Origin: a virus
Length of the DNA stretch: 64,000 bases
IMG/VR virus record: IMGVR_UViG_3300030106_006724
Coordinates: 25,201-89,200 of that record
Direction: 5' to 3' (one strand)
Positions 6,725 through 54,518 of the stretch are shown here, in pieces (position 1 is the first letter of the stretch; each line of letters starts with the position of its first letter). The position numbers were made by a program, and so were the translations under genes. The notes under the pieces are model-generated. The model did not search any database. It saw only the letters and a program-made list of their open reading frames with translations, and had not been told where the DNA came from.

Positions 6725-9052
6725 ATGCAATTAGAGAAAAAATACTATACCGTTCAAGATAATGAAACTCTTGAACTCTTATATAAACATATTGAATCGT
6801 CTGATATACTAGCTGTCGATACTGAAACTTCTGGTCTTAATCCTCGTAAAGATAAAATAGTTGGTTGGTCAGTATCTGGCGACGAAGGTGTAGGGTTTTA
6901 CCTACCTACCTTAGTTTGGAACTTTGATAAAGATGAATTAGAACTTCAAACTATTAACGGTAAATCTACTGAAACTATATCTAAAAACTTTATGAGAATG
7001 CTAAAAGGTAAAAAATTAGTATTTCATAATGCTTCGTTTGACTGTCAGTTTATTAAAAATTATTTTGGAGTAGATCTTATTGAAGATATATGGGTTGATA
7101 CTGGTCTATTAGTTCATACTGTATATGAAGAAGGTGCGTTTGGTTATGGTAATCCTTTTGGTTTGAAACCTATTGCTATAATGAATCAGAAAGAATTAGG
7201 TTTAGATGTAGAAAAAGCTGCTAACGAAGAGCAATTAGAACTTAAAGGCTCTATAAAGAAAAATGGCGGTCAGACTACTAAGTTACTATTTGAGATTTAT
7301 AAAGCTGATTTAGATATTCTATCTAAGTATGCTTCTGCCGATACCGATTTAACTTTACGTATATGTAACTTATATCTAAAGAAATTAAAAGAAGAAGGGC
7401 TAGAGAAGTTTTTCTTTGAAGAAGAAGTTATGCCGATATATAGAGAAGTAACTGTTCCTATGGAATCTGCAGGTGTTGATTTAGATGTAGAACTAATAGA
7501 AAAGACTCATAAAGAGATTAGCGAAGACTTAATTAAAAATAAAGAGATAGTAATGAAATCTTTATTAGCTATTTCTGAAGTTAAAGAATGGGTATTAGGT
7601 ACTGCATTAAGTAACTACCCTGTATCTCATAAAGGTAACTGGGCTCAGAATTTGGTTACTCGTTATTCTTTACCTTTACCTAAGTCTGAAAAAACTGGTA
7701 AGTATTCTCTTACTAGTAAAAATATAGAAGAGTTAGAGGAATCTAATGTTAAGCAGTTTTTACTTACTGGTGATACTGATCTTATAGAAGATGTAGAAAA
7801 AGCTCGTATATCGATGGCTATGTGGAAAGAATCTAATGATGGAGAGTATATTAATATTCAATCTAAGAAGCATTTAGGTGAAATAGTATTTAAGTATATG
7901 GGTATTAAACCTAAAGTAGCTGGTGCTAATACTAAATCTGGTAGAGCTAAGTTTGATATGGATATGGTAGAAGAACTAGCGAAAGAATATCCTTGGGCTG
8001 AAAACTTAAGAATATATAATAAACTACTTAAGATTAAATCTACTTATGTAGATAGGTTTAGAGATAGAAATGAAGATGGTAAATATTATTTTTACTTTAA
8101 GCAGAATGGTACTGTATCTGGTCGATATGGATCTGATGCTCAACAGTTACCTAAACCTTTAGAAGAAGGTGAAGATGCTCCTATTATTATGAAGTATGTT
8201 AATATAGTAAGGGCTTTCTTAGTAGCCGGTAAAGGTAGAAAAGTTATTGATGCTGATTACGAATCATTAGAACCTCATTGCTTTGCCTCAGTATCTGGTG
8301 ATAAAAAACTTCAAGAAATATTCGATAATGGTTGGGACTTTTATTCTTATGTCGCTATTCAAACTGAAAAGCTTGATGGAGTATCTGCTGATAAAAAAGC
8401 TGATAACTACCTTAAAAAATTAGATCCTGTTAAAAGAAATAAAGCTAAAGCTTATTCTTTAGGAGTTGCATATGGAATGGAAGCTTATGCTCTTAAAATG
8501 ACTTTAGGAGTAGATCAAAAGACTGCTGAAGGATTAATAAAGGGTTACTTAGATGGTTTTCCTGGTTTAAGAGATTGGAGAGAAAACTCTCGTAGGCAAG
8601 TAAAAGATCATGGTTTTATTAAAAATTATGTTGGTCGTATAAGGCACGTACCTAAGGTAAAAAAGATTTATGAAAAGTTTGGTGAAAAGATGATGGATTG
8701 GAGGTTTAGAAAAGACTTAGAGAATCAAGGATATAATAGAGATGATATAGTTAAGGTTTATAGAGATTACCGTAATGGATTAAACTTCTGCCTTAACTTT
8801 CAATTACAATCTTTAGCTGCAGCGGTAGTAAATAGAGCTGCTGTAGTTATTAATAGGACTGCTAGAGAAAAAGGCTTCGATGCTTTCGTTCAAGCACAAG
8901 TACATGACCAGTTAATTATAAACGTGAAAGACGATCAAGCTGAAGCCTTTGCTCCTTTAGTTCAAGAGATTATGGAAAATACTACTAAGTTACCTGGAGT
9001 AACTTTAAAAGCTCCTCCTGAAATAGCTAATAACTGGAGAGACGGACATTAA
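6725..9052 (+). CDS. polA: Family A DNA polymerase with 3'-5' exonuclease
   Basis: AVDTETSG, FHNASFD, YASADT; SGRYGS, ADYESLE, RNKAKAYSLGVAYG, QVHDQL. Confidence 0.95.
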   Translation: MQLEKKYYTVQDNETLELLYKHIESSDILAVDTETSGLNPRKDKIVGWSVSGDEGVGFYLPTLVWNFDKDELELQTINGKSTETISKNFMRMLKGKKLVFHNASFDCQFIKNYFGVDLIEDIWVDTGLLVHTVYEEGAFGYGNPFGLKPIAIMNQKELGLDVEKAANEEQLELKGSIKKNGGQTTKLLFEIYKADLDILSKYASADTDLTLRICNLYLKKLKEEGLEKFFFEEEVMPIYREVTVPMESAGVDLDVELIEKTHKEISEDLIKNKEIVMKSLLAISEVKEWVLGTALSNYPVSHKGNWAQNLVTRYSLPLPKSEKTGKYSLTSKNIEELEESNVKQFLLTGDTDLIEDVEKARISMAMWKESNDGEYINIQSKKHLGEIVFKYMGIKPKVAGANTKSGRAKFDMDMVEELAKEYPWAENLRIYNKLLKIKSTYVDRFRDRNEDGKYYFYFKQNGTVSGRYGSDAQQLPKPLEEGEDAPIIMKYVNIVRAFLVAGKGRKVIDADYESLEPHCFASVSGDKKLQEIFDNGWDFYSYVAIQTEKLDGVSADKKADNYLKKLDPVKRNKAKAYSLGVAYGMEAYALKMTLGVDQKTAEGLIKGYLDGFPGLRDWRENSRRQVKDHGFIKNYVGRIRHVPKVKKIYEKFGEKMMDWRFRKDLENQGYNRDDIVKVYRDYRNGLNFCLNFQLQSLAAAVVNRAAVVINRTAREKGFDAFVQAQVHDQLIINVKDDQAEAFAPLVQEIMENTTKLPGVTLKAPPEIANNWRDGH

Positions 9053-12821: not shown

Positions 12822-13637
12822 ATGAAAGGAGACTACTACTCTCAATTTAAAAGGGTTTTTATGCGTAAACATGCAAATAGTATAGTGAATTATACTACCC
12901 CGGATAACGAAGAGCTATTTAAAGAGAACCTTGCAAAATACCCCGATAATAAAGAGTTATTACATTATCGAGATAACCCTATAAAGTATGCGTTAAATGA
13001 TTATGGTTTTAGAACACCGGATAATTTTGATAATGCTGAAGAAGAGGGTAATGTATTTCTGGGTTGTAGTCATACTTTTGGTATAGGACATTATTTAGAA
13101 AATACTTGGTCTTGGAGACTTAACCAAAAGATTGGAGGTAAGTTTTGGAATCTATCTGCGCCGGGAACAGGAATAGGAACCGCTGCGCGTTTGTTGGGAG
13201 AATTTAAAAATAAATTAAAAATAAAAAATATATTTCTCTACACTCCTTTCTGTTATAGGTATGAGGTTTATGAAGCTAAAAAAGGGGTATGGATAAATAT
13301 ATCTCCTGCTAATGTCTTTCACCATTATATAGAAGTATCAGATGAAGTAAGATTCATCTTAGGACAAGAAGAAAATATGAGATTAAATTGGAGAACTAAT
13401 CTTGCTGCTATAAAATACTATGCTCATGAAGTAGGAGCTAAATTATTTAGTATTGAAAATATAGATTTTTATGTTAATAATAATGATAACTTTCCAGAAA
13501 TAGCTAGAGATATATTACATCCAGGAGTTAGTTATCAAGATTTAGTTTATGATAAATTTTTAGATGCATATAAAAATAATTTACCATTATGGGAAGAACC
13601 TGCTAGCAGTTTTAAACCGTTAAAGACTTTGATATAA
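12822..13637 (+). CDS. SGNH-like protein
   Basis: LNDYGFR, FLGCSHTFG, NLSAPGTG, ARDILHPG; ends KTLI; TATTTAT at 12801. Confidence 0.65.
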   Translation: MKGDYYSQFKRVFMRKHANSIVNYTTPDNEELFKENLAKYPDNKELLHYRDNPIKYALNDYGFRTPDNFDNAEEEGNVFLGCSHTFGIGHYLENTWSWRLNQKIGGKFWNLSAPGTGIGTAARLLGEFKNKLKIKNIFLYTPFCYRYEVYEAKKGVWINISPANVFHHYIEVSDEVRFILGQEENMRLNWRTNLAAIKYYAHEVGAKLFSIENIDFYVNNNDNFPEIARDILHPGVSYQDLVYDKFLDAYKNNLPLWEEPASSFKPLKTLI

Positions 13638-14767: not shown

Positions 14768-15003
14768 GTGATTCAGTAAAAAAATGGCACGAAACTATTT
14801 CAGAAGATATACAAGCAGTTTATGAAACAGCAGAAGTAAGAAGAGAAAAAAAGATAAATAAGTTATTAAATGTAGCTAAAGAATCTGGTAAAATGACTGA
14901 GATAATGCTAAGAGTAGTAGAAGTTCAAAAAGAATTCAATACTAGTTCATTTTTGTTAGGTTTAGAAATAGCCTGTGATGAATTATTAAAAGATGGTGCC
15001 TGA
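14764..15003 (+). CDS. Hypothetical protein
   Basis: ORF in operon. Confidence 0.65.
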   Translation: MSDSVKKWHETISEDIQAVYETAEVRREKKINKLLNVAKESGKMTEIMLRVVEVQKEFNTSSFLLGLEIACDELLKDGA

Positions 15004-15517
15004 TAAAAAAGATGTAGTACAATTAGTATTACATAAAGAAAATTATATTCCTATACAAGAGATCGATAACTCATTCTCCTATAAATGGTTTTATAAGTTA
15101 GATCAAGAACACGACTTTCATTCTATTATAAAAAGTATTAACTTAATGCTAGAAGATTGGAATGAAGCACCTACTTTTGATGATATAGTATCTAGATTCG
15201 AAGCAGGAAGTTTTGTAATGCTTCAATATTATAAAAATGAACCTATAGGGTGGTTTTGGGGGAATACGAGACTAACTTACGACTGGAAAAATATAGTAAA
15301 AGAATTACCCTCAGTTAATTCAATGTATGGAGGAGGTTCTTATATTACTAAAGATAGAAACATTCCTAAAAATACTGGTATTCAGCTTTATACTAAATTT
15401 TTTAATGATATATTTGATTTTTATAAATCAGCTTATGGTTATGTAGATTCATGGAATAAAGCTCCTATAAGAATTAATAAAAGATCAGGAGCTATCGAAA
15501 TAAATAATCTTTTATAA
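14993..15517 (+). CDS. Hypothetical protein, possible GNAT-like fold
   Basis: PIGWFW, GIQLY, VDSWNKAP loosely GNAT-like. Confidence 0.5.
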   Translation: MVPDKKDVVQLVLHKENYIPIQEIDNSFSYKWFYKLDQEHDFHSIIKSINLMLEDWNEAPTFDDIVSRFEAGSFVMLQYYKNEPIGWFWGNTRLTYDWKNIVKELPSVNSMYGGGSYITKDRNIPKNTGIQLYTKFFNDIFDFYKSAYGYVDSWNKAPIRINKRSGAIEINNLL

Positions 15518-16092
15518 TGAGAGTATGTATTTATGCTCAATCTAGATCTGGCTCTACAGTATTAAGTTTATATGTATCTAATCAATTAGGTCTTTATAAT
15601 ATTGCAGAACCTTATAATCCAAGAAATTCAGCTAGAGGAAGATACTTTCCTGATGAAGCAGTTTGGTTAGATCCTGGAGTATCGGTTAAGTTTTTATGCG
15701 GAGAGCTTAGAGTTGAACAGCAAGAATCATTAGATAAGTATTTTGATAAAGTAATTATCTTAACTAGAGAAGATGATATAGCTGGTGCTGAAAGTCATAT
15801 GATGGGGCTTATAACTAGAATATGGGAACCATATAAGTATAATTTAAAAGAATTTAACGAAGAAGAAAGAATTAAACTTCAGTATAATATAAAATGGAGA
15901 ACTGAAACTAGAGAGCAATTAACTAATTTACCTTACTTTCAAGTAACTTATGAGGAATTATTTTATAAAAAAGTTGGAATTACGAGATTAAATTCTTATC
16001 TTAATATAGAAAAGGATAACTCGGATATAGGTATGTTTGATTTAAAGCATAAGTATAGACAGGATCCTATAAATAAAAAGTCTCTAATTTGA
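15517..16092 (+). CDS. Sulfotransferase-like protein
   Basis: N-terminal AQSRSGST PAPS-loop, EPYN, ILTRED, VTYEEL; ends KKSLI. Confidence 0.7.
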   Translation: MRVCIYAQSRSGSTVLSLYVSNQLGLYNIAEPYNPRNSARGRYFPDEAVWLDPGVSVKFLCGELRVEQQESLDKYFDKVIILTREDDIAGAESHMMGLITRIWEPYKYNLKEFNEEERIKLQYNIKWRTETREQLTNLPYFQVTYEELFYKKVGITRLNSYLNIEKDNSDIGMFDLKHKYRQDPINKKSLI

Positions 16093-24838: not shown

Positions 24839-25762
24839 ATGCCTAAAAAAATTCCAAAGCAAGTAAAACTTGTTAGGGATAGTTATATAAAGCAGAGTAA
24901 GAGTAATAAACATATCTCTTATAGTCAGCTATTTACTTACCTTAGTTGTAAACGTAAATGGGAATTACAGTATTTACGTAATATAGCTCCTTTCGAACCA
25001 TCAATACATGCTGTATTCGGATCAGCATTTCATGAAACATTGCAAAATTATTTAAATGTAATGTATACTGATACTGCAAAAGCAGCTGATGAAATAGATA
25101 CTAATGCGTATCTGTACGAAAGGATGACTAAAAATTATAAAAGACAGAAAATGCAGAACGGTAACGAGCATTTTTCTAATGCCGACGAAATGAATATGTT
25201 TTGGTTAGATGGGAAGCATATAATGGAATTTATTAAAAAGAAAAGAAGAGGTTATTTTTCTAAAAAGAATACTTACTTAGCAGGTATCGAGACTTTACTA
25301 TATCAAGAATTAAAACCAGGAGTTTATTTTAAAGGTTTTATAGATTTAGTTTTTTATAATAAATTTTTAGATGAATATACTTTAGTCGATATTAAAACGT
25401 CTACTAAAGGATGGAATAAATTTGCTAAAGCTGATGATAAAAAAATATTTCAATTACTTTTATATAAAGAATTTTTTGCTAAGCAATTTAATATTCCTAT
25501 TGAAAAAGTAAACGTAGAATACTTTATAGTAAAAAGAAGAGTACCTGTAGAAGCTGATTTTGCTTCTATGCAAAGAAGAGTACAAGAGTTTAGACCAACA
25601 GCTGGTAAAATAAAAAGAGGTAAAGCTCTATCAGCTATGAATAACTTTATAAAAGATGTATTAGATGAAAATAATAACTATATAGATAAAAGCTATCACT
25701 GTACTGGAGATAGAAATCCGTGCTGGCATTGTAACGTTTACGATGGAGTTTTAGAAAAATAG
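24839..25762 (+). CDS. PD-(D/E)XK exonuclease (RecB/AddB/Cas4-like)
   Basis: ISYSQ..C, FGSAFHE, GFIDL, VDIKT, QLLLY, C-terminal CxxC. Confidence 0.85.
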   Translation: MPKKIPKQVKLVRDSYIKQSKSNKHISYSQLFTYLSCKRKWELQYLRNIAPFEPSIHAVFGSAFHETLQNYLNVMYTDTAKAADEIDTNAYLYERMTKNYKRQKMQNGNEHFSNADEMNMFWLDGKHIMEFIKKKRRGYFSKKNTYLAGIETLLYQELKPGVYFKGFIDLVFYNKFLDEYTLVDIKTSTKGWNKFAKADDKKIFQLLLYKEFFAKQFNIPIEKVNVEYFIVKRRVPVEADFASMQRRVQEFRPTAGKIKRGKALSAMNNFIKDVLDENNNYIDKSYHCTGDRNPCWHCNVYDGVLEK

Positions 25763-45975: not shown

Positions 45976-46265
45976 TAACCGGTAATATGTTATTAATGTT
46001 TATTATAGGATTTATTATATTCTGTATTTATATATCAGGTTTAATATATGCTATATACTGGGGTCATAGTACTCAGAGAAAAGAAATGATGGAAGATCCT
46101 GAACTTCAAAATTACTATAACAGGCATAATAATTATGATGCTGATATAGACTGGTCTAAATATAATCCTCATGTAGATGAATCTGATAGTTATGTTAAAA
46201 ATCTTTTTAAACCTAAAACAAATAAGAAAAAAGAAAACGTAGGTAAGAGTACGTTTTGGGATTAA
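45972..46265 (+). CDS. Membrane-anchored hypothetical protein
   Basis: N-terminal TM. Confidence 0.65.
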   Translation: MITGNMLLMFIIGFIIFCIYISGLIYAIYWGHSTQRKEMMEDPELQNYYNRHNNYDADIDWSKYNPHVDESDSYVKNLFKPKTNKKKENVGKSTFWD

Positions 46266-46846
46266 TGAAGAAAAGACATTTAATCGTAATAGGTCATCCA
46301 GATAAAAAATCATTTTGTTGGAATGGTATATATAAAACTATAATCCGACAAATGCGAAAGCATAAACAGAATTATAGAACTATTGATTTATATAGAGATA
46401 GTTTTTCAAGACCTAGAACTGAATTAGTAGAAAAATATCAAGATTGGGTTTCGTGGAGTACTCACATTTATTTTATTTCTCCTGTATGGTGGTTTAGATT
46501 AACTCCTAGAATGGAAGTATTTTTCGACGAAGTATTTACTCCCGGATGGGCATATAAGTTTGTTAATATTACAAAGTTGTATGCTTACCCTAAACCTTTT
46601 TTAAAAGATAAGAGAGTTAGAACTTATATTACTCACGGAGCTCCTTCTTTACCAGTTAGAACTTTATACCTAAATTCAGTTAAATTAAGATTAGTATTAG
46701 GAGTATTTACTTTTGTATTTGGATGGAAATTATCCAGATGGTTAAAGACTAAGCAGTTTTGGTCAGTACCGTTCGTAAGTCAAAAGAAAAGAACTAAATA
46801 TTTAAGAGTAGTTAAAGAAGATATTAGAAACGATTTAGGATTATGA
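46265..46846 (+). CDS. NAD(P)H-dependent oxidoreductase, flavodoxin-like (NQO/KefF family)
   Basis: GHPDKKSF, IDLY, SPVWWF..P, DEVFTPGWAY. Confidence 0.8.
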   Translation: MKKRHLIVIGHPDKKSFCWNGIYKTIIRQMRKHKQNYRTIDLYRDSFSRPRTELVEKYQDWVSWSTHIYFISPVWWFRLTPRMEVFFDEVFTPGWAYKFVNITKLYAYPKPFLKDKRVRTYITHGAPSLPVRTLYLNSVKLRLVLGVFTFVFGWKLSRWLKTKQFWSVPFVSQKKRTKYLRVVKEDIRNDLGL

Positions 46847-48606: not shown

Positions 48607-50925
48607 ATGCAAGGAACATTATTTTCTTCAGATTATGTTATAGATGCTAACGGTAACGAAAGATTAATTGAAATCAATACCGATACTGCATTTACACAAG
48701 AATTTATAGATAGCTATATAAACTTAACTGACTTTATTAACGTACTTTCGTCTAATAATATAGCAGAAGTAGTAGTAATATACAAAGATTTCCATTATAA
48801 TTTTGTTGAGAAGTTAGAAGCTACGTTAAGCTCTCAACTTCCCTCAGTAACTTTAACTAAACAGATTGAAGATATTAATAGTATTTATCCTAACTCAGTT
48901 ACTGATGCTGCTAATAAATTTATATTAAGACTTGCTTATAACGAAAATGCATTACTAGACTCTACTTATGCTAAAAATAAATTAAATCTATTTGAATTAT
49001 TTGTAGATAATAATAATACAACAGAAATAGCTGAATTTTATCATTCAGGTTCTAACGGTATTATAAATACTATTACAGCATCATCTAACGCATCAAATAT
49101 TCCTGATTATATTTCTAAACCATCTGAGGTTCAGCATCAAACATATAACTTATTTAAAGGAGTATCAGGCTCTACTGATCAAGAACAATTAGATAATATT
49201 ATTGAAGATGTAGAAAATATAGAACGAGTAGATAGGATGGTACAAAAATACCATTATAATAGCGGACAAGTAGTTAATAATAGAATTACTTCTATAAGAT
49301 TATTTTCAATAGTATATGATACTGATATAAAATTACTACATTTAGGAATAGCAAAAGCTTCTGCTATGTTAAATATTCCTGGAGTAGTCGAGTATGATAC
49401 CAGAGGAGTAGGTAGATTAAAACTTCAACATTATTATGAGTTTGCTACTAACTATCCTAAGTTTAATCGTAAGCAAGGAGGTTTTTTACCTACAGTACAT
49501 GTTTTAAAACCTGATAATTCAGGAGTTCAGATTAGCTCAGTTCAGTTAAATGATAGTTTAGCTTCATATTATGTTTCTGGCTCTCCTGATACTGATAGCG
49601 GTTCAGTATTAGTTCAATGGAGTATTCCTGGCAATGAAATTCCTTCCGGTTCTTATGTAACCAGCTCAATAGTACATACTGCTATGTCTTCATCAGCAGG
49701 TGATGCAGCTTTAGGAAGATTAGTAACTGATAGCGGTTACGAACTACCAGTAAGTCCTGCCTCGATATTTTTAGTACATGACTCAGCTTCTAATACGGTT
49801 ACTTTCGAAAGTATGCATAATATAAATCCTGGAGATAGTTTATTTAATTTAGATGGTAGTAAGTATTTAATATCTCAATCTCTTCTTGATGTTTATTCTA
49901 ATCAGGATAATCCAATTTATGAATTAAATATGGAATCTACCGATATGTACATATTAAGTTCATCAGGTATATTAGTTCATAATGCTCCTTGTTTTATAGC
50001 AGGAACTATGATTGAATGCGAAGATTCAGTTAAACCTATTGAAATAATTGACCCAGGAGAAAAAGTATTAACTTATAATCACGAAACTAACGAAATAGAA
50101 CCTAAAGAAGTATTAGAAATATGTGTTTGTAAAGATACTCCTGTTATTAAAATTACTATAGGAGAAATAGAAGTTACTTGTACTCATGATCATCCTTTCT
50201 ATATTGAAAATAAAGGGTACGCTTCTTATAATCCAATACAGACATACGAAGATGCTGGAATGGAAGTAGCTAAATTAGAAATAGGAGACAAGGTATTAGA
50301 TGCTAATAAAGTATATACTGAAGTAAAAAGTATAGAAGAGTTAGAGGAACATGAAACTGTATATAATTTAAAGCAGGTTAAAGATAATCATAATTTTTAT
50401 GCTAATAGTTTTTTAGTTCATAATAGAGGAGGTTTTTGTTTTGCAGCTGGTAGTGAAGTAGCGTTAGCTAATGGAGATTATAAAAATATAGAAGATATAG
50501 TAATAGGAGATCAAGTTTTAAGTTGGAATGAAGAAACACATAAAGTGGAAGCTGATACTGTTTACGATATTACTAAACCAGTTTATAGCAATCTAATAGA
50601 CTTAACTTTTGAAAATTCATATACTAATAAAGAATCTAATATTAGCTATATTAGTTGTACTAAAGATCATCCTATATATATTTGGAATGAAGATAATTTT
50701 AAACTAGCATCTTCTGATCCAGATAGAAGTAATGAAATTTATGATATTCCTCACAAAGTTGAAAAATTAGTAATAGGTAATAATGCTATTAATATTCATA
50801 ACGGTCACAGTGAATTAAAAGATTTACAATTTGCTGAAGATAAAGATCCACAAGTTACGTATTGTTTAAGAGTTAAAAATAATAATAACTTTTTTGTTAA
50901 TAATATTTTAGTACACAATAAATAA
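48607..50925 (+). CDS. Circularly permuted ATP-grasp-like domain fused to three tandem Hint domains
   Basis: N-terminal SDYVID..G..RLIEINT, YISKP, VQKY; Hint1 GF...ILVHN (49480-49983), Hint2 CF..GT/THDH/LVHN (49990-50424), Hint3 CF..GS/TKDH/LVHN (50437-50919); TATTTAT at 48585. Confidence 0.8.
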   Translation: MQGTLFSSDYVIDANGNERLIEINTDTAFTQEFIDSYINLTDFINVLSSNNIAEVVVIYKDFHYNFVEKLEATLSSQLPSVTLTKQIEDINSIYPNSVTDAANKFILRLAYNENALLDSTYAKNKLNLFELFVDNNNTTEIAEFYHSGSNGIINTITASSNASNIPDYISKPSEVQHQTYNLFKGVSGSTDQEQLDNIIEDVENIERVDRMVQKYHYNSGQVVNNRITSIRLFSIVYDTDIKLLHLGIAKASAMLNIPGVVEYDTRGVGRLKLQHYYEFATNYPKFNRKQGGFLPTVHVLKPDNSGVQISSVQLNDSLASYYVSGSPDTDSGSVLVQWSIPGNEIPSGSYVTSSIVHTAMSSSAGDAALGRLVTDSGYELPVSPASIFLVHDSASNTVTFESMHNINPGDSLFNLDGSKYLISQSLLDVYSNQDNPIYELNMESTDMYILSSSGILVHNAPCFIAGTMIECEDSVKPIEIIDPGEKVLTYNHETNEIEPKEVLEICVCKDTPVIKITIGEIEVTCTHDHPFYIENKGYASYNPIQTYEDAGMEVAKLEIGDKVLDANKVYTEVKSIEELEEHETVYNLKQVKDNHNFYANSFLVHNRGGFCFAAGSEVALANGDYKNIEDIVIGDQVLSWNEETHKVEADTVYDITKPVYSNLIDLTFENSYTNKESNISYISCTKDHPIYIWNEDNFKLASSDPDRSNEIYDIPHKVEKLVIGNNAINIHNGHSELKDLQFAEDKDPQVTYCLRVKNNNNFFVNNILVHNK

Positions 50926-50928
50926 ATT

Positions 50929-51069
50929 ATGTCAGCACCAATATATAAAACAGTTTCATTTAGTGAAGTCAAAGAAGGAAAACTAAACTCAGTTGATTCT
51001 ACTCAAGAAACTAATACTAAAGCTATTATAGGAAGATTTATAACTTACTTTAAAGCAAAACACTTATAA
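50929..51069 (+). CDS. Small protein, 46 aa (not in ORF track)
   Basis: MSAPIYKTVSFSEVKEG...FITYFKAKHL; 3 nt after the Hint gene. Confidence 0.65.
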   Translation: MSAPIYKTVSFSEVKEGKLNSVDSTQETNTKAIIGRFITYFKAKHL

Positions 51070-51118: not shown

Positions 51119-51313
51119 ATGATTATGAACCAGTTATTTTTTATAAAATCACATAAAGTTAACCATAAAACTATAGATTCAGTAATGGAAGGTTGCCATA
51201 TTGAATTAGATGGTTATCGATACGAACAACTTAATAAAAGACCTTTTGGTAGATCGATTGAGAGAAGATTGAGAAGTATGGATGAAGAAACTCAATTAGT
51301 AGTCTATAAGTAA
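51119..51313 (+). CDS. Hypothetical protein
   Basis: Follows promoter. Confidence 0.6.
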   Translation: MIMNQLFFIKSHKVNHKTIDSVMEGCHIELDGYRYEQLNKRPFGRSIERRLRSMDEETQLVVYK

Positions 51314-51669
51314 TGGAAAAACTAAATTGGTATTATATTTTTCTAGGGTTTGTAGTTACTGTTATAGCTCAGATAGGAGCTTGGTTTCAACATAATCTTC
51401 AATTTAAAGATCCTAAATACGATGAAACTTGGTGGGGTATGTATGCTTTGGCTATACCTCTAACTTATGTTTTTATTTTAGCTACTAAATATAATGTAGT
51501 TGGGTATGGAGGTTCTATATGGGGAGCTAGATTTGTAGGTTTTGCTTTAGGAATGTTAGTATATGCTATAATGATTCAAATATTTTTTAAAGAACCTTTT
51601 ACTATCAAGATAGCAGTTCAGTTATTATTATGTTTTACTATATTAGCAGTCCAAGCTTTTTGGAAATAA
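51313..51669 (+). CDS. Four-TM membrane protein (SMR/DMT-like size)
   Basis: Four hydrophobic helices in 118 aa. Confidence 0.65.
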   Translation: MEKLNWYYIFLGFVVTVIAQIGAWFQHNLQFKDPKYDETWWGMYALAIPLTYVFILATKYNVVGYGGSIWGARFVGFALGMLVYAIMIQIFFKEPFTIKIAVQLLLCFTILAVQAFWK

Positions 51670-51672
51670 ATT

Positions 51673-52200
51673 ATGGATATAAAAATTATTTACGGATCAG
51701 ATACAGGTAATACAGAAGATGTAACTAATATGATAGTTGATCTTTTAATGGCAGGCGAAGGTAGGTACATTACAAAAATAGTAACTGTTGAAGATTTAGA
51801 GCCTGAAGATTGGACCTCTCACGATTATTACTTTTTAGGTATTCCTACTTGGTACGATGGAGAACTTCAGAGTGATTGGGAAGAATACTTTGAAGAATTT
51901 AAAACTATAGATTTTACTGGTAAAACAGTAGCTATATTTGGATTAGGAGATCAATATACTTATGCTACGTGGTTCTGTGACGGAGTAGGAATATTAGCTA
52001 AAGTTATTATGGAAAATGGAGGTAAAGTTATAGGTTATACTGAAAAAGATGACTCTTATGATTTTGAAACTATTCCTAAAGCTTTATTAGATGAAAATAC
52101 TTTTTATGGGTTATGTATTGACCAGGATAATCAAGAAGAATTAACTGAAAGTAGAGTTAATAACTGGGTTGAAAAAGTTAAAAAAGAGTTGGAATCCTGA
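51673..52200 (+). CDS. fldA: Long-chain flavodoxin
   Basis: YGSDTGNTE, GIPTWYDGELQSDW, AIFGLGDQ, GLCIDQDNQ. Confidence 0.92.
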   Translation: MDIKIIYGSDTGNTEDVTNMIVDLLMAGEGRYITKIVTVEDLEPEDWTSHDYYFLGIPTWYDGELQSDWEEYFEEFKTIDFTGKTVAIFGLGDQYTYATWFCDGVGILAKVIMENGGKVIGYTEKDDSYDFETIPKALLDENTFYGLCIDQDNQEELTESRVNNWVEKVKKELES

Positions 52201-52480: not shown

Positions 52481-52705
52481 ATGTTTGAAATTATAAGAAT
52501 TGTAAGTGGCTATTTAGTCATAGGTTGTATTTGGATAATATGGTTCGAATGGTTTTGTAAAAAAAATAAAATAGGAGGTGCATTTACTAATCAAGAAAGA
52601 TATATTCAGTTAGTATTATGGCCTTTAAATTTATCTGTATTCCTTTTTACTTGGATACAGGAGGCTTTTAAAAATAGTAACGATGGCGGACCTAGCGGTT
52701 ATTAA
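52481..52705 (+). CDS. Small membrane protein
   Basis: Two TMs; VLWP. Confidence 0.6.
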   Translation: MFEIIRIVSGYLVIGCIWIIWFEWFCKKNKIGGAFTNQERYIQLVLWPLNLSVFLFTWIQEAFKNSNDGGPSGY

Positions 52706-53396
52706 AGAAATAATTAAAGAAACTAAAAATGTATGGAGATTTAAAATAGAATCTCCTTTATACGATAAATTAAATTATAAACCAGGACAACTTATTAATT
52801 TATTTTTAAGAAGTCCTATGGATCCTCCTCACGTAAGAAGTTATTCTATTTCTTCTTGGCCTGATGATACAAATCAACTAGAGATAATAGTTACCGATCA
52901 GCCTGGCGGTATTATGAGTGAATTATTATTTAGACAAGCTAAGGTAGGAACTGAATTAGAATATAGTGGACCTATGGGGGTATTTACCCTTCCGGAAGAA
53001 ATTAATAGAGATATTTTCTTTGTTTGTACTGGTTCAGGTATAAGTCCTTTTAGATCCATGGTAAATTACGTTACTAAAAATAATATTAAGACTAAAAATA
53101 TTCATCTTATATATGGTTGTAGAACTAAAGCAGATCTACTTTATTACGATGAATTAAAAGAATTAGAAAAAGAAAATCCTAACTTTCATTATCATTGTAC
53201 TCTTTCTAGAGAGAAAGTAGAAGGATTTCATAACGGTTATGTTCATCCAATTTATTTAGATTTAATTAAAGATCTAAAAAATAAACCTCTATTCTACTTA
53301 TGTGGTTGGAAGCAGATGATTACCGATGTTAGAACTAATCTAAATAGATTAGATTATAAGATGGGTAAAGATATAAGGATAGAAATATTCGGATAA
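52683..53396 (+). CDS. FNR-family FAD/NAD(P) oxidoreductase
   Basis: YKPGQ, RSYSISS, GGIMS, GPMGVF, TGSGISPF, YLCGW, EIFG. Confidence 0.9.
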   Translation: MADLAVIKEIIKETKNVWRFKIESPLYDKLNYKPGQLINLFLRSPMDPPHVRSYSISSWPDDTNQLEIIVTDQPGGIMSELLFRQAKVGTELEYSGPMGVFTLPEEINRDIFFVCTGSGISPFRSMVNYVTKNNIKTKNIHLIYGCRTKADLLYYDELKELEKENPNFHYHCTLSREKVEGFHNGYVHPIYLDLIKDLKNKPLFYLCGWKQMITDVRTNLNRLDYKMGKDIRIEIFG

Positions 53397-53399
53397 ATC

Positions 53400-54518
53400 T
53401 TGAAAAATAAAAAGGTTATAATATCTAAGGATAGAATATTTTATTCTGACGGTAATAAAAATAAAGGTATCGTTATGGATAAAATAGCTAAACCTATTAC
53501 TGAAGAGTTCTGTAGTATAGTAGGTAAGAGTAGAGGAGATATACTAGATATAGGATTTGGTTTAGGATACTCAGCTGATAGATTTTATTCTATGGGTGTT
53601 AAGAGTTATACTTGTATCGAAATTAATAAGCAAATTTATGATACAGCTATAAAGTGGGCAGAAGATAAAGATAATGTTAATATTATTTACGGAGACTGGA
53701 TAGATATAATTCCAACTCTTAATAAAAAATTTGATGGTATCTTTATGGATACCTATGAAGATAAAAATTATTCTAAATTTGAAGATTATGCAAAATTAAT
53801 CTCAAATGAAAATTGTTGTTTATCAATTTATGAATATCCTGAACTTAAAAGTTTAAATTTATTAAATTCAAAAGCTATAAAATTAGAACAAGAAGGTTAT
53901 GAATTGCTATTAAAACCTTATCATAGAGTATGTTGGACATATTTCGTAGCTAATAAATTTAGAAAAAATAAGTTCTTTAGTTCTAAAAAGTTACTCTCAA
54001 AAAAGCTATGTAATAAATTAATATCAGATAATAAAGATTCTCTTATTAAAGAAGAAGTAGAGAAAGAAGTAGATGGTATTTTACATAAAAGAATCTATAA
54101 GTTTACTAATTTAAAATATAATAAAGCTTTTGAAGATATATTAAATAATACTTTCTTCTTAAATTATCAAAAAGTAAACTTAAAAGATATATTATGCGTT
54201 ATGGTTGAATACGGTGTAGGTGAAGGTTACGATAGACATGTTGAAACTATTAAAGGATTATCTTTAGATCATAAAGAGCAATATAATATGATATACGACT
54301 TTACTCTTAATGATGATTATGAAGGAGGAGAAGTTGAAATATATGACGCATGGCATAAAAATGACAGAGATACATTTTCAGCTATAAAACCTAATATAGG
54401 AGAATGTTTAATTTACAAACCTTATCAACATGCTACTTATAAGAAAGTAACTAAAAATAAAAAGTATCAAATCATAGTAATGATTAAAAATAAAGATTTA
54501 AAAAAAACTTTAATATAA
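53400..54518 (+). CDS. Methyltransferase fused to a 2OG-Fe(II) oxygenase-like domain
   Basis: ILDIGFGLG, CIE, FDGIFMDTY; C-terminal YDRHVE, LNDDYEGGE, H..KKVT; ends KKTLI. Confidence 0.75.
   Translation: MKNKKVIISKDRIFYSDGNKNKGIVMDKIAKPITEEFCSIVGKSRGDILDIGFGLGYSADRFYSMGVKSYTCIEINKQIYDTAIKWAEDKDNVNIIYGDWIDIIPTLNKKFDGIFMDTYEDKNYSKFEDYAKLISNENCCLSIYEYPELKSLNLLNSKAIKLEQEGYELLLKPYHRVCWTYFVANKFRKNKFFSSKKLLSKKLCNKLISDNKDSLIKEEVEKEVDGILHKRIYKFTNLKYNKAFEDILNNTFFLNYQKVNLKDILCVMVEYGVGEGYDRHVETIKGLSLDHKEQYNMIYDFTLNDDYEGGEVEIYDAWHKNDRDTFSAIKPNIGECLIYKPYQHATYKKVTKNKKYQIIVMIKNKDLKKTLI

Follow-up and report, generated by a model that had tools for sequence, protein, structure and literature searches.

The question raised by the locus examined here is what a viral gene for a putative ligase fused to three successive Hint domains is made for, and what becomes of its product. 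The locus lies in a 64,000-nucleotide (nt) stretch of the IMG/VR virus record IMGVR_UViG_3300030106_006724 (positions 25,201 to 89,200 of the record; the whole stretch is hereafter the window). In this window, a plus-strand open reading frame (ORF; 48607..50925) for a protein of 772 amino acids (aa) is followed on the same strand by a 46-aa ORF (50929..51069) that starts 3 nt past the stop codon of the former. In this two-gene module, we tentatively propose, the first gene encodes an amide ligase whose Hint cassette removes itself, and the second a small partner that resembles a scaffold, a reading to which we give just short of an even chance.

The 772-aa protein divides into four parts, namely a head, a degenerate Hint1, Hint2 and Hint3 (Table 1). 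This anatomy, proposed by a first-pass annotation made from the letters of the window, was borne out by Pfam, a PDB search, hhalign and the positions of the motifs, with RLIEINT starting at residue 19, YISKP at 168, VQKY at 212, LVHN at 456, 603 and 768, GGF at 291 and 608, CF at 462 and 611, TCTH at 524 and TKDH at 685. The Pfam matches to the Hint clan were confined to residues 461-771 and fell into two stretches (~461-606 and 607/611-771); no match at E<=1 was obtained on residues 1-460. Hint2 matched PT-HINT, Intein_splicing and AXH, and Hint3, from residue 607/611 onward, matched Hint, Hom_end_hint and Vint. The values on the Hint units were 2.9e-14 for PT-HINT and 1.9e-17 for Intein_splicing, and the matches to the clan (PT-HINT, Intein_splicing, Hint_2, Hint and Vint) all lay above or near the cut-off. 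In the sequence search of PDB, Hint2 (residues 462-606) matched the bacterial intein-like (BIL) domain 2lwy of C. thermocellum over its full length (3.1e-16). The catalytic residues are C462, T526-x-x-H529 and H605-N606 in Hint2, with Arg607 at the +1 position, and C611, T685-x-x-H688 and H770-N771 in Hint3, with Lys772 at +1. Both units, as annotated, have Cys1 and TxxH. All three junctions of the window protein (LVHN-AP-CF, LVHN-RGGF-CF and LVHN-K-stop) were checked, and no Cys, Ser or Thr stands at any +1 position, which agrees with the annotation and sets these units apart from canonical inteins. Hint2 and Hint3 found each other in hhalign with a probability of 100%, at a pairwise identity of 32.7%. 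Judging from sequence, motifs and the absent +1 nucleophile, both are Hint domains of BIL type A.

In hhalign, the profile of 105 Hint1 sequences matched that of Hint2 along the entire length of both (probability 97.4%, E 1.4e-11) and reached a probability of 96.8% with the Hint3 profile, the control comparison of the head with Hint2 giving 0.45%. Gly292 takes the place of Cys1 in this alignment and TxxH is absent, as the first-pass annotation had noticed; a conserved insert of ~23 residues is also present. Hint1 keeps E443/D446 and the terminal His458-Asn459; the unit closes with HN in 273 of the 277 distinct relatives in which it is complete, and its last residue is Asn in every one of them. 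We regard residues 292-460 as a true Hint that is degenerate in its motifs and undetected by Pfam. Its assignment as a class 2 or class 3 intein was rejected, since there is no Cys in residues 1-461, a +1 Cys occurs in just 39 of 252 relatives, and TxxH is lacking.

Clustering of the family of the 772-aa protein gave 371 clusters at an identity of 90% and 251 representatives at 50% (E<=1e-3). Fragments excepted, the alignment starts at residue 1 on both sides, query and hit, in most of the full-length matches listed. Head and Hint1 are followed by two Hints in 112 of 265 sequences and by one Hint in 77, and stand alone in 25; the others are head fragments (34), sequences with three hits, mostly from a split third unit (9), and further arrangements (8). 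Behind the His-Asn of Hint1, 252 of 273 members continue with a canonical Hint, 10 with a short tail (12 residues or fewer), and 11 with something else, among them the Cys-rich tails described below. Natural short members end in HN+K, HN+AKEEV or HN+PAPPPKL. Cys-rich tails of 30-90 residues replace the canonical Hints in P0225, P0234, P0236, P0245, P0252, P0261 and P0262, and in P0227, P0237 and P0257; the self-cleaving chaperone domain Peptidase_S74 ends some of the Cys-rich-tailed members (P0227, 1.2e-6).

Among the 386 complete canonical units, Cys1 was found in 386, TxxH in 374, His-Asn in 376, and all three in 371. Since 371 of the 386 units keep the three motifs despite an identity of 20-40%, the Hint chemistry appears to be retained. 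In the 128 two-Hint proteins, Hint2 and Hint3 of the same protein share a median identity of 28% and at most 41%, and for this reason the idea that the two are recent duplicates was rejected. The first-pass annotation had set against itself the case of recent, unselected duplications of Hint2/3 with random linkers: the duplication is contradicted by these identities and by the motifs kept, and the variable linkers were indeed found (see below).

Residues 1-291 probably constitute a divergent amide ligase that belongs to the GspS/YgiC-type ATP-grasp enzymes (GspS, glutathionylspermidine synthetase). Invariant among 43 lineage representatives are D9, D13, E22, N24, T25, D26, K60, D100, R108, Y111, D118, Y121, D167, K171 and R231. 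The motifs of the head follow one another in the order D-Y-V-I-D-A-N-G-N-E-R-L-I-E-I-N-T-D-T, A-K-N-K-L-N-L-F-E-L-F, Y-I-S-K-P and M-V-Q-K-Y-H. The family motif R-L-L-E-I-N-T-D-T resembles K-L-L-E-N-N-A-D-T of E. coli YgiC, the later motifs of which, S-N-K-A-L-L-P-L-L-W, Y-V-V-K-P and M-I-V-Q-Q-F-H, occur in the same order as in the head. D9, E22 and N24 align with D102, E115 and N117 of YgiC, and K123, K171 and V-Q-K-Y 212-215 were paired by eye with N-K267, V-K302-P and V-Q-Q-F. The order also matches that stated in passages of PMC2427367, in which Arg328, Asp330, Glu344, Asn346, Lys513, Lys548 and Arg613 are given as conserved triphosphate/Mg residues of Leishmania trypanothione synthetase and E. 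coli GspS (R/D...E-x-N...K...K...R, with D/E/N in the Mg role). The predicted Mg-binding Asp...Glu-x-Asn strand precedes the putative lysine strands in the head, as in the GspS/YgiC type. The motifs and their order in the first-pass annotation thus hold, and the order that it took for a circular permutation is native to GspS/YgiC-type ligases; the spacing D-x7 given there before RLIEINT was misread, the acids preceding R19 being D9 (x9) and D13 (x5).

In hhalign, the head matched YgiC alone with an E of 0.0029 and a set of 23 GspS-like sequences (YgiC, YjfC, the synthetase part of Gss and 20 viral-contig homologues) with an E of 1.4e-4 and a probability of 52%, residues 8-77 falling on YgiC 101-169. 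After re-alignment, a second, weak and colinear match (E 0.081) placed residues 166-217, the Lys strand and the hinge, on 297-340. A divergent subfamily (20-30% identical) gave the same placements, with E 0.0074 against the GspS-like sequences and 0.019 and 0.14 against the RimK-like ones, and shows the textbook hinge L-Q-E-Y-I and Y-R-S-x-D-x-x-Y-G. For the head itself, E. coli RimK alone gave a probability of 0.26%, and 125 RimK-like sequences gave the expected placement at non-significant values (E 0.092 and 0.15). The best chain of a PDB profile search was the D-Ala-D-Ala ligase 4eg0 (E 2.6, residues 8-34 only), NCBIfam had no match on the 43 heads, and a forced global alignment scored 1.87 against a mean of 3.05 in 60 column shuffles. 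In the protein Atlas, neither the head of the window protein nor the relative P0204 was present, and the homologue P0045 led to unnamed viral clusters alone. In one related phage contig with the module (L086; 219 kb, viral record G001), a second peptide ligase, of the classical kind, is encoded; it is a 488-aa ATP-grasp protein of the RimK family that is extended at its C-terminus.

Two scans of viral contigs found 128 and 303 places related to the module, which may overlap between the scans. The locus analyses described below cover the best 80 of the 128 (main set) and the best 80 of the 303 (divergent set), with the genes called by a simple longest-ORF routine. A homologue of the 46-aa partner lies 0-110 nt downstream of the ligase-Hint gene in 80/80 loci of the main set and in 42/42 lineages (70% identity). 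In the divergent subfamily, a motif search found an ORF of 37-50 residues with the same kind of end in 71/80 loci. Tyr6, Lys7, Phe37 and His45 of the partner are near-invariant and its C-terminus reads K-x-K-H-[LS]; no Pfam or PHROG family matched it. The 46-aa ORF is thus an obligate partner of the ligase-Hint gene. This supports the small system with a coupled 46-aa ORF suspected in the first-pass annotation; in the comparison of homologues that it proposed, the number of Hints (0-3) and the linkers vary while this ORF stays linked. The K-H-L end was also sought on other neighbors of the module and occurred in just 4/1645 and 6/1464 of them. One type of last Hint in relatives lacks His-Asn and ends in A-S-G-L-G-D-N...K-Y-x-R-Q...[KNT]-H-L (P0047, P0075, P0090, P0100, P0102, P0120, P0127, P0132, P0151 and P0171), finishing in the same last residues as the partner. 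Homology of the partner to the K-H-L tails of these third-type Hint units was rejected, a comparison of hidden Markov models giving no match better than E 1.

Table 1. Parts of the module and a tagged neighboring gene, in positions of the window.
Feature	Position	Strand	Basis
Head domain, residues 1-291	48607..49479	+	Invariant residues; hhalign vs GspS-like alignment
Hint1, residues 292-459, degenerate	49480..49983	+	hhalign vs Hint2 profile
Junction Ala460-Pro461	49984..49989	+	Motif positions
Hint2, residues 462-606, intact, BIL-type	49990..50424	+	Pfam; PDB 2lwy; motif positions
Junction Arg-Gly-Gly-Phe 607-610	50425..50436	+	Motif positions
Hint3, residues 611-771, intact, BIL-type	50437..50919	+	Pfam; hhalign vs Hint2
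Terminal Lys772 and stop codon	50920..50925	+	Motif positions
46-aa partner, end K-A-K-H-L	50929..51069	+	Downstream homologues in relatives
Methyltransferase-2OG-Fe(II) oxygenase fusion, end D-L-K-K-T-L-I	53400..54518	+	Pfam Methyltransf_25, 2OG-FeII_Oxy_3

The peptides bracketed by the Hints turned out to be variable. Between Hint1 and Cys1, 39 of 252 proteins have no residue, 30 have one, 130 have two, and 53 have 3-14. AP was found at 98 of the 252 junctions, and X-Pro makes up 119 of the 130 two-residue linkers (AP 98, SP 16, GP 3, DP 1 and NP 1). The 146 second junctions are heterogeneous and 1-14 residues long, with RGGF in 2 and the longer RAGFPGSYYTDPT recurring in 20; these counts are rough, as parsing ended early, at a His-Asn inside the unit, for part of the rows, so that some of the linkers and tails contain the final block of the Hint. 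The C-terminal tripeptide most often seen in the family is HNK (170 proteins). Because the linkers vary in both length and sequence, we regard AP and RGGF as not being conserved products, and the family gives no support to the defined products or tags that the first-pass annotation saw in AP, RGGF and K.

As read from the motifs and from the families named above, the chemistry of the proposed amide ligase with its self-removing cassette would be as follows. At the expense of ATP, the head would convert a carboxylate to an acyl-phosphate, the acyl group of which it would then join to an amine. The likeliest carboxylate would be that at the conserved C-terminus of the partner (K-x-K-H-L/S), which would make the partner a scaffold or carrier like LysW or the PEARL scaffold peptides. 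Cyclization of Asn459, Asn606 and Asn771 would cut the chain behind each Hint, and thioesters at Cys462 and Cys611 would lead to the cuts in front of Hint2 and Hint3. The mature ligase-Hint1 body would end at His-Asn, as in the natural short members with 1-10 further residues, and AP, RGGF and K would be remnants of the junctions rather than products. The Hint cassette would then serve as a pro-piece that is shed, with a role in timing, folding or tethering; its units have been reshuffled in number and type many times.

Several points weigh against this proposal. The ligase assignment draws on ~85 N-terminal residues and short motifs, and residues 95-291 alone gave nothing significant against the GspS-like or RimK-like profiles (E 0.13-0.74). 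No ATP-grasp model of Pfam matched the window protein at E<=10, and among 43 members, ATPgrasp_ST and GSP_synth matched 1/43 each (0.014 and 0.049, respectively), fewer than the 7/43 heads matched by FtsH_ext, which is surely noise. The PDB profile search with the 43 sequences returned no ATP-grasp chain. On the side of the cassette, the autocleavage is predicted from motifs, and the conserved catalytic residues of the canonical Hints, together with the X-Pro bias of the linkers (119/130), suggest that the cassette is more than disposable. Pro before Cys1 is unfavorable for thioester formation in inteins, and the N-terminal cut of Hint2 may therefore be slow. Finally, the partner could equally be a regulator, a clamp or an adaptor.

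Upstream of the module, Pfam found in the window a flavodoxin-like fold protein (46256-46846), a cytidylyltransferase-like protein and an MTS methyltransferase. Downstream follow a 64-aa ORF (51119-51313), a 118-aa probable membrane protein (51313-51669), a flavodoxin (51673-52200), an FNR-like FAD/NAD reductase (52683-53396) and a fusion of a methyltransferase with a 2-oxoglutarate (2OG) oxygenase. Neither the 64-aa nor the 118-aa ORF has a Pfam match; the former was found again close to the module in 12 of the 42 lineages and the latter in 9. The flavodoxins and the FNR-like reductase could serve as the electron supply for oxygenases. The upstream methyltransferase pointed out by the first-pass annotation is present in the window but is not a conserved neighbor among the relatives, and the late-type promoter assumed there, of a TATTTAT type, finds no statistical support, as TATTTATATTA with no more than one mismatch was counted 29 times and 27.6 would be expected; sigma-70-like sites are likewise at chance (32 against 33.1 expected). 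Across the 42 lineages, the frequent neighbors are 2OG-Fe(II) oxygenases (34 lineages, 147 copies), SET domains (13), radical SAM proteins (12) and PhoH (11), and those in the divergent set are 2OG oxygenases and a Trp-halogenase-like gene (14/38).

Neighbors of the module share a C-terminal tag with the consensus K-x-x-K-[STKN]-[LI]-[IL]. We counted ends in [LI][LI] among the distinct same-strand proteins of at least 80 aa in the loci L002-L081 (main) and L114-L193 (divergent). In the main set, such ends occur in 124/217 proteins (57%) at gene positions +1..+5, 101/216 at +6..+10 and 57/213 at -5..-1, and farther out in 36/351 upstream and 31/165 downstream. The corresponding figures for the divergent set are 150/227 (66%), 91/222, 113/233, 39/269 and 17/105, and the frequency of the dipeptide inside proteins is 2.7%. 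The tag is carried by 75/97 2OG oxygenases, 20/34 radical SAM proteins and 13/24 SET proteins, and is missing from PhoH (0/11) and from the small partner (0/45). In the window, 4/96 plus-strand ORFs are tagged; the fusion gene at 53400-54518 is the sole one near the module, and the others (12822-13637, 14993-15517 and 15517-16092) lie together at 12.8-16.1 kb.

A wider explanation is that the gene pair is the core of a so far undescribed, phage-borne, tag-directed modification system. The ligase would form an adduct, on the K-H-L end of the partner or on its own Hint-bracketed tail, the tagged tailoring enzymes would be recruited to it, and the Hints would release, cyclize or transfer the product by Asn cyclization upstream of it and a thioester downstream. 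We hold this system to be rather improbable. If it is real, viruses would make small modified peptides or protein tags by a route that is ribosomal and releases its own product.

A transfer reaction like that of Hedgehog appears unlikely as well. The thioester at Cys462 (and Cys611) would here be resolved by a chosen nucleophile in place of water, and the C-terminus of the ligase-Hint1 body would become joined to Lys7 of the partner, to a virion or host protein, or to a lipid. The C-terminal Hints with essentially nothing downstream, as in Hedgehog/Hog, speak for such a transfer, as do the Cys1 kept in 386/386 complete units and the nearly invariant Tyr6-Lys7 of the partner. On the other hand, the members without any canonical Hint keep the partner gene, about half of the proteins have Pro in front of Cys1, and an adduct-recognition region was not found.

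No better in our judgment is the idea that the canonical Hints are semi-selfish insertions like BIL domains or mini-inteins, which would accumulate at the His-Asn/Lys end through recombination of similar 3' ends and would do the phage no service beyond their own removal. The number of units varies from 0 to 3, and the exact removal of the units would restore the HN-K end of the short member P0214. In a tree of 180 Hint units, made with a quick version of the tree search, units of the first and second positions were intermixed with 27 changes of position label, at least 4 of which are forced by supported branches. This intermixing implies that Hint units were gained, lost or swapped repeatedly, as semi-selfish elements would be. 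However, shuffled labels on the same tree needed 47 changes, and 0/500 shuffles were as low as 27, so that the labels are more clustered than expected by chance. In addition, 252/273 members have at least one unit, the units are without homing endonucleases, and unrelated self-cleaving or Cys-rich modules occupy the same place in other members, which argues for selection for a processed C-terminal piece.

Less probable again is that the head is a docking platform rather than an active ligase, which together with the partner would gather the neighboring enzymes tagged with K-x-x-K-[ST]-L-I, or, in a variant of equally low standing, would present them with the variable piece at its own C-terminus as the substrate. 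The excess of [LI][LI] ends at +1..+5 over the internal frequency in both sets (57% and 66% vs 2.7%), the tag on unrelated families (2OG oxygenases, radical SAM and SET proteins) and not on PhoH, and the hypervariable Cys-rich tails of some members are what a platform would lead one to expect. Against it, the invariant Asp/Glu/Asn/Lys/Arg set of the head looks catalytic, and the window has one tagged gene near the module.

Least probable of all, we can largely dismiss the reading closest to the first-pass annotation, in which the Hint array excises and activates the bracketed peptides, AP and RGGF being freed as thioesters by the upstream Asn cyclization and the downstream Cys1 and then turned into a diketopiperazine (from an X-Pro thioester) or a cyclic peptide (from a longer linker) or handed over by the ligase: the domain geometry would suit such chemistry, the two-residue linkers are biased to X-Pro, RAGFPGSYYTDPT recurs, and variable linkers are compatible with a product, as the cores of ribosomally synthesized and post-translationally modified peptides are hypervariable, but 39/252 proteins have no residue between Hint1 and Cys1 and 30/252 have one, the linkers of 0-14 residues are unrelated in sequence (RGGF 2/146), the 106/252 with a single canonical Hint have no second bracketed peptide, 21/273 have no canonical Hint, and one small molecule per 772-aa protein would be very costly.

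Beyond this locus, the source viral record has 89.2 kb, a completeness of ~54% and a G+C content of ~30%. Its family A DNA polymerase (PolA; window 6725-9052) shares 69% identity with the PolA of the Flavobacterium phages vB_FspM_immuto (160 kb), which places the phage of the window near the Flavobacterium 'immuto' group. The cultured 'immuto' phages gave no match to the head of the 772-aa protein, and none of the cultured phage records matches the head. Among 185,579 species genomes, a single place was found; the contig there is 2.8 kb long and comes from an uncultured Cyanobium bin. The unit of the ligase-Hint gene and the 46-aa ORF is restricted almost wholly to viral contigs; it is frequent in aquatic phages, and the phages that carry it have unrelated backgrounds. 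Should the ligase and the cassette cooperate, they would represent a new viral way of making or attaching modified peptides, and protein engineering could draw on them for natural Hints that cleave fast and are +1-independent; even as a mere removable pro-piece, the cassette would be an unusual means of enzyme control in phages.

Hint/BIL domains and ATP-grasp ligases are each known, and the combination of a ligase, a graded Hint array and a partner, with neighboring enzymes in relatives that have an end tag in common, is undescribed in the literature searched, which did not extend to supplementary tables or to Iyer et al. 2009 (amidoligases); passages of PMC7824862 and PMC4431377 likewise contain no description of the ligase-Hint design. 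The closest known relatives of the Hints are the A-type BIL domains. Hint2 and 2lwy both have Cys1, TxxH and the terminal His-Asn and no +1 Cys, Ser or Thr, and Hint2/3 (~145-160 aa) are, like A-type BIL domains, without an endonuclease insert. BIL domains reportedly cleave or splice without a +1 nucleophile. Unlike them, the phage Hints stand in tandem at the extreme C-terminus with 1-4 residues between or after them, come after a degenerate Hint and form one chain with a putative enzyme. The head, for its part, shares with GspS, YgiC, YjfC and trypanothione synthetase the order of the motifs and a near-identical [KR]-L-L-E-x-N-x-D-T strand. It differs in lacking the ~95-residue N-terminal segment of YgiC, in a second half that is not detectably similar, in failing the Pfam model GSP_synth and in having no amidase domain.

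As for the whole design, the order of a functional N-terminal part followed by a C-terminal Hint with a releasing Cys1 thioester, predicted here, recalls Hedgehog/Hog, but the phage protein has several tandem Hints, all with the terminal His-Asn, and no sterol-recognition region was found in it. A small conserved peptide gene beside a predicted ATP-dependent ligase, amid tailoring enzymes, is shared with the LysW-LysX and the PEARL/pearlin systems; the tailoring-type neighbors in the phage loci are 2OG oxygenases, radical SAM proteins, SET domains, methyltransferases and a Trp-halogenase-like protein. In the LysW-LysX amino-group carrier system, the ligase activates the small peptide at its C-terminal carboxylate. 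The phage partner differs from a LysW-type carrier in ending in K-H-L/S instead of an acidic tail. The preprint bioRxiv 10.1101/2024.03.12.584671 describes PEARLs as resembling GspS and glutathione (GSH) synthetase and provides a precedent for the ATP-driven activation of the C-terminus of a scaffold peptide with subsequent tailoring; unlike PEARL, the phage head has no tRNA-dependent LanB-like domain, and no release protease was seen. Lastly, PT-HINT, which is among the Pfam matches of the phage protein, and Peptidase_S74 are self-cleaving modules that mature a variable C-terminal piece, as the phage Hints would do. The phage Hints differ in having no toxin domain behind them, the variable pieces of the family being other Hints, Cys-rich tails or a single residue.

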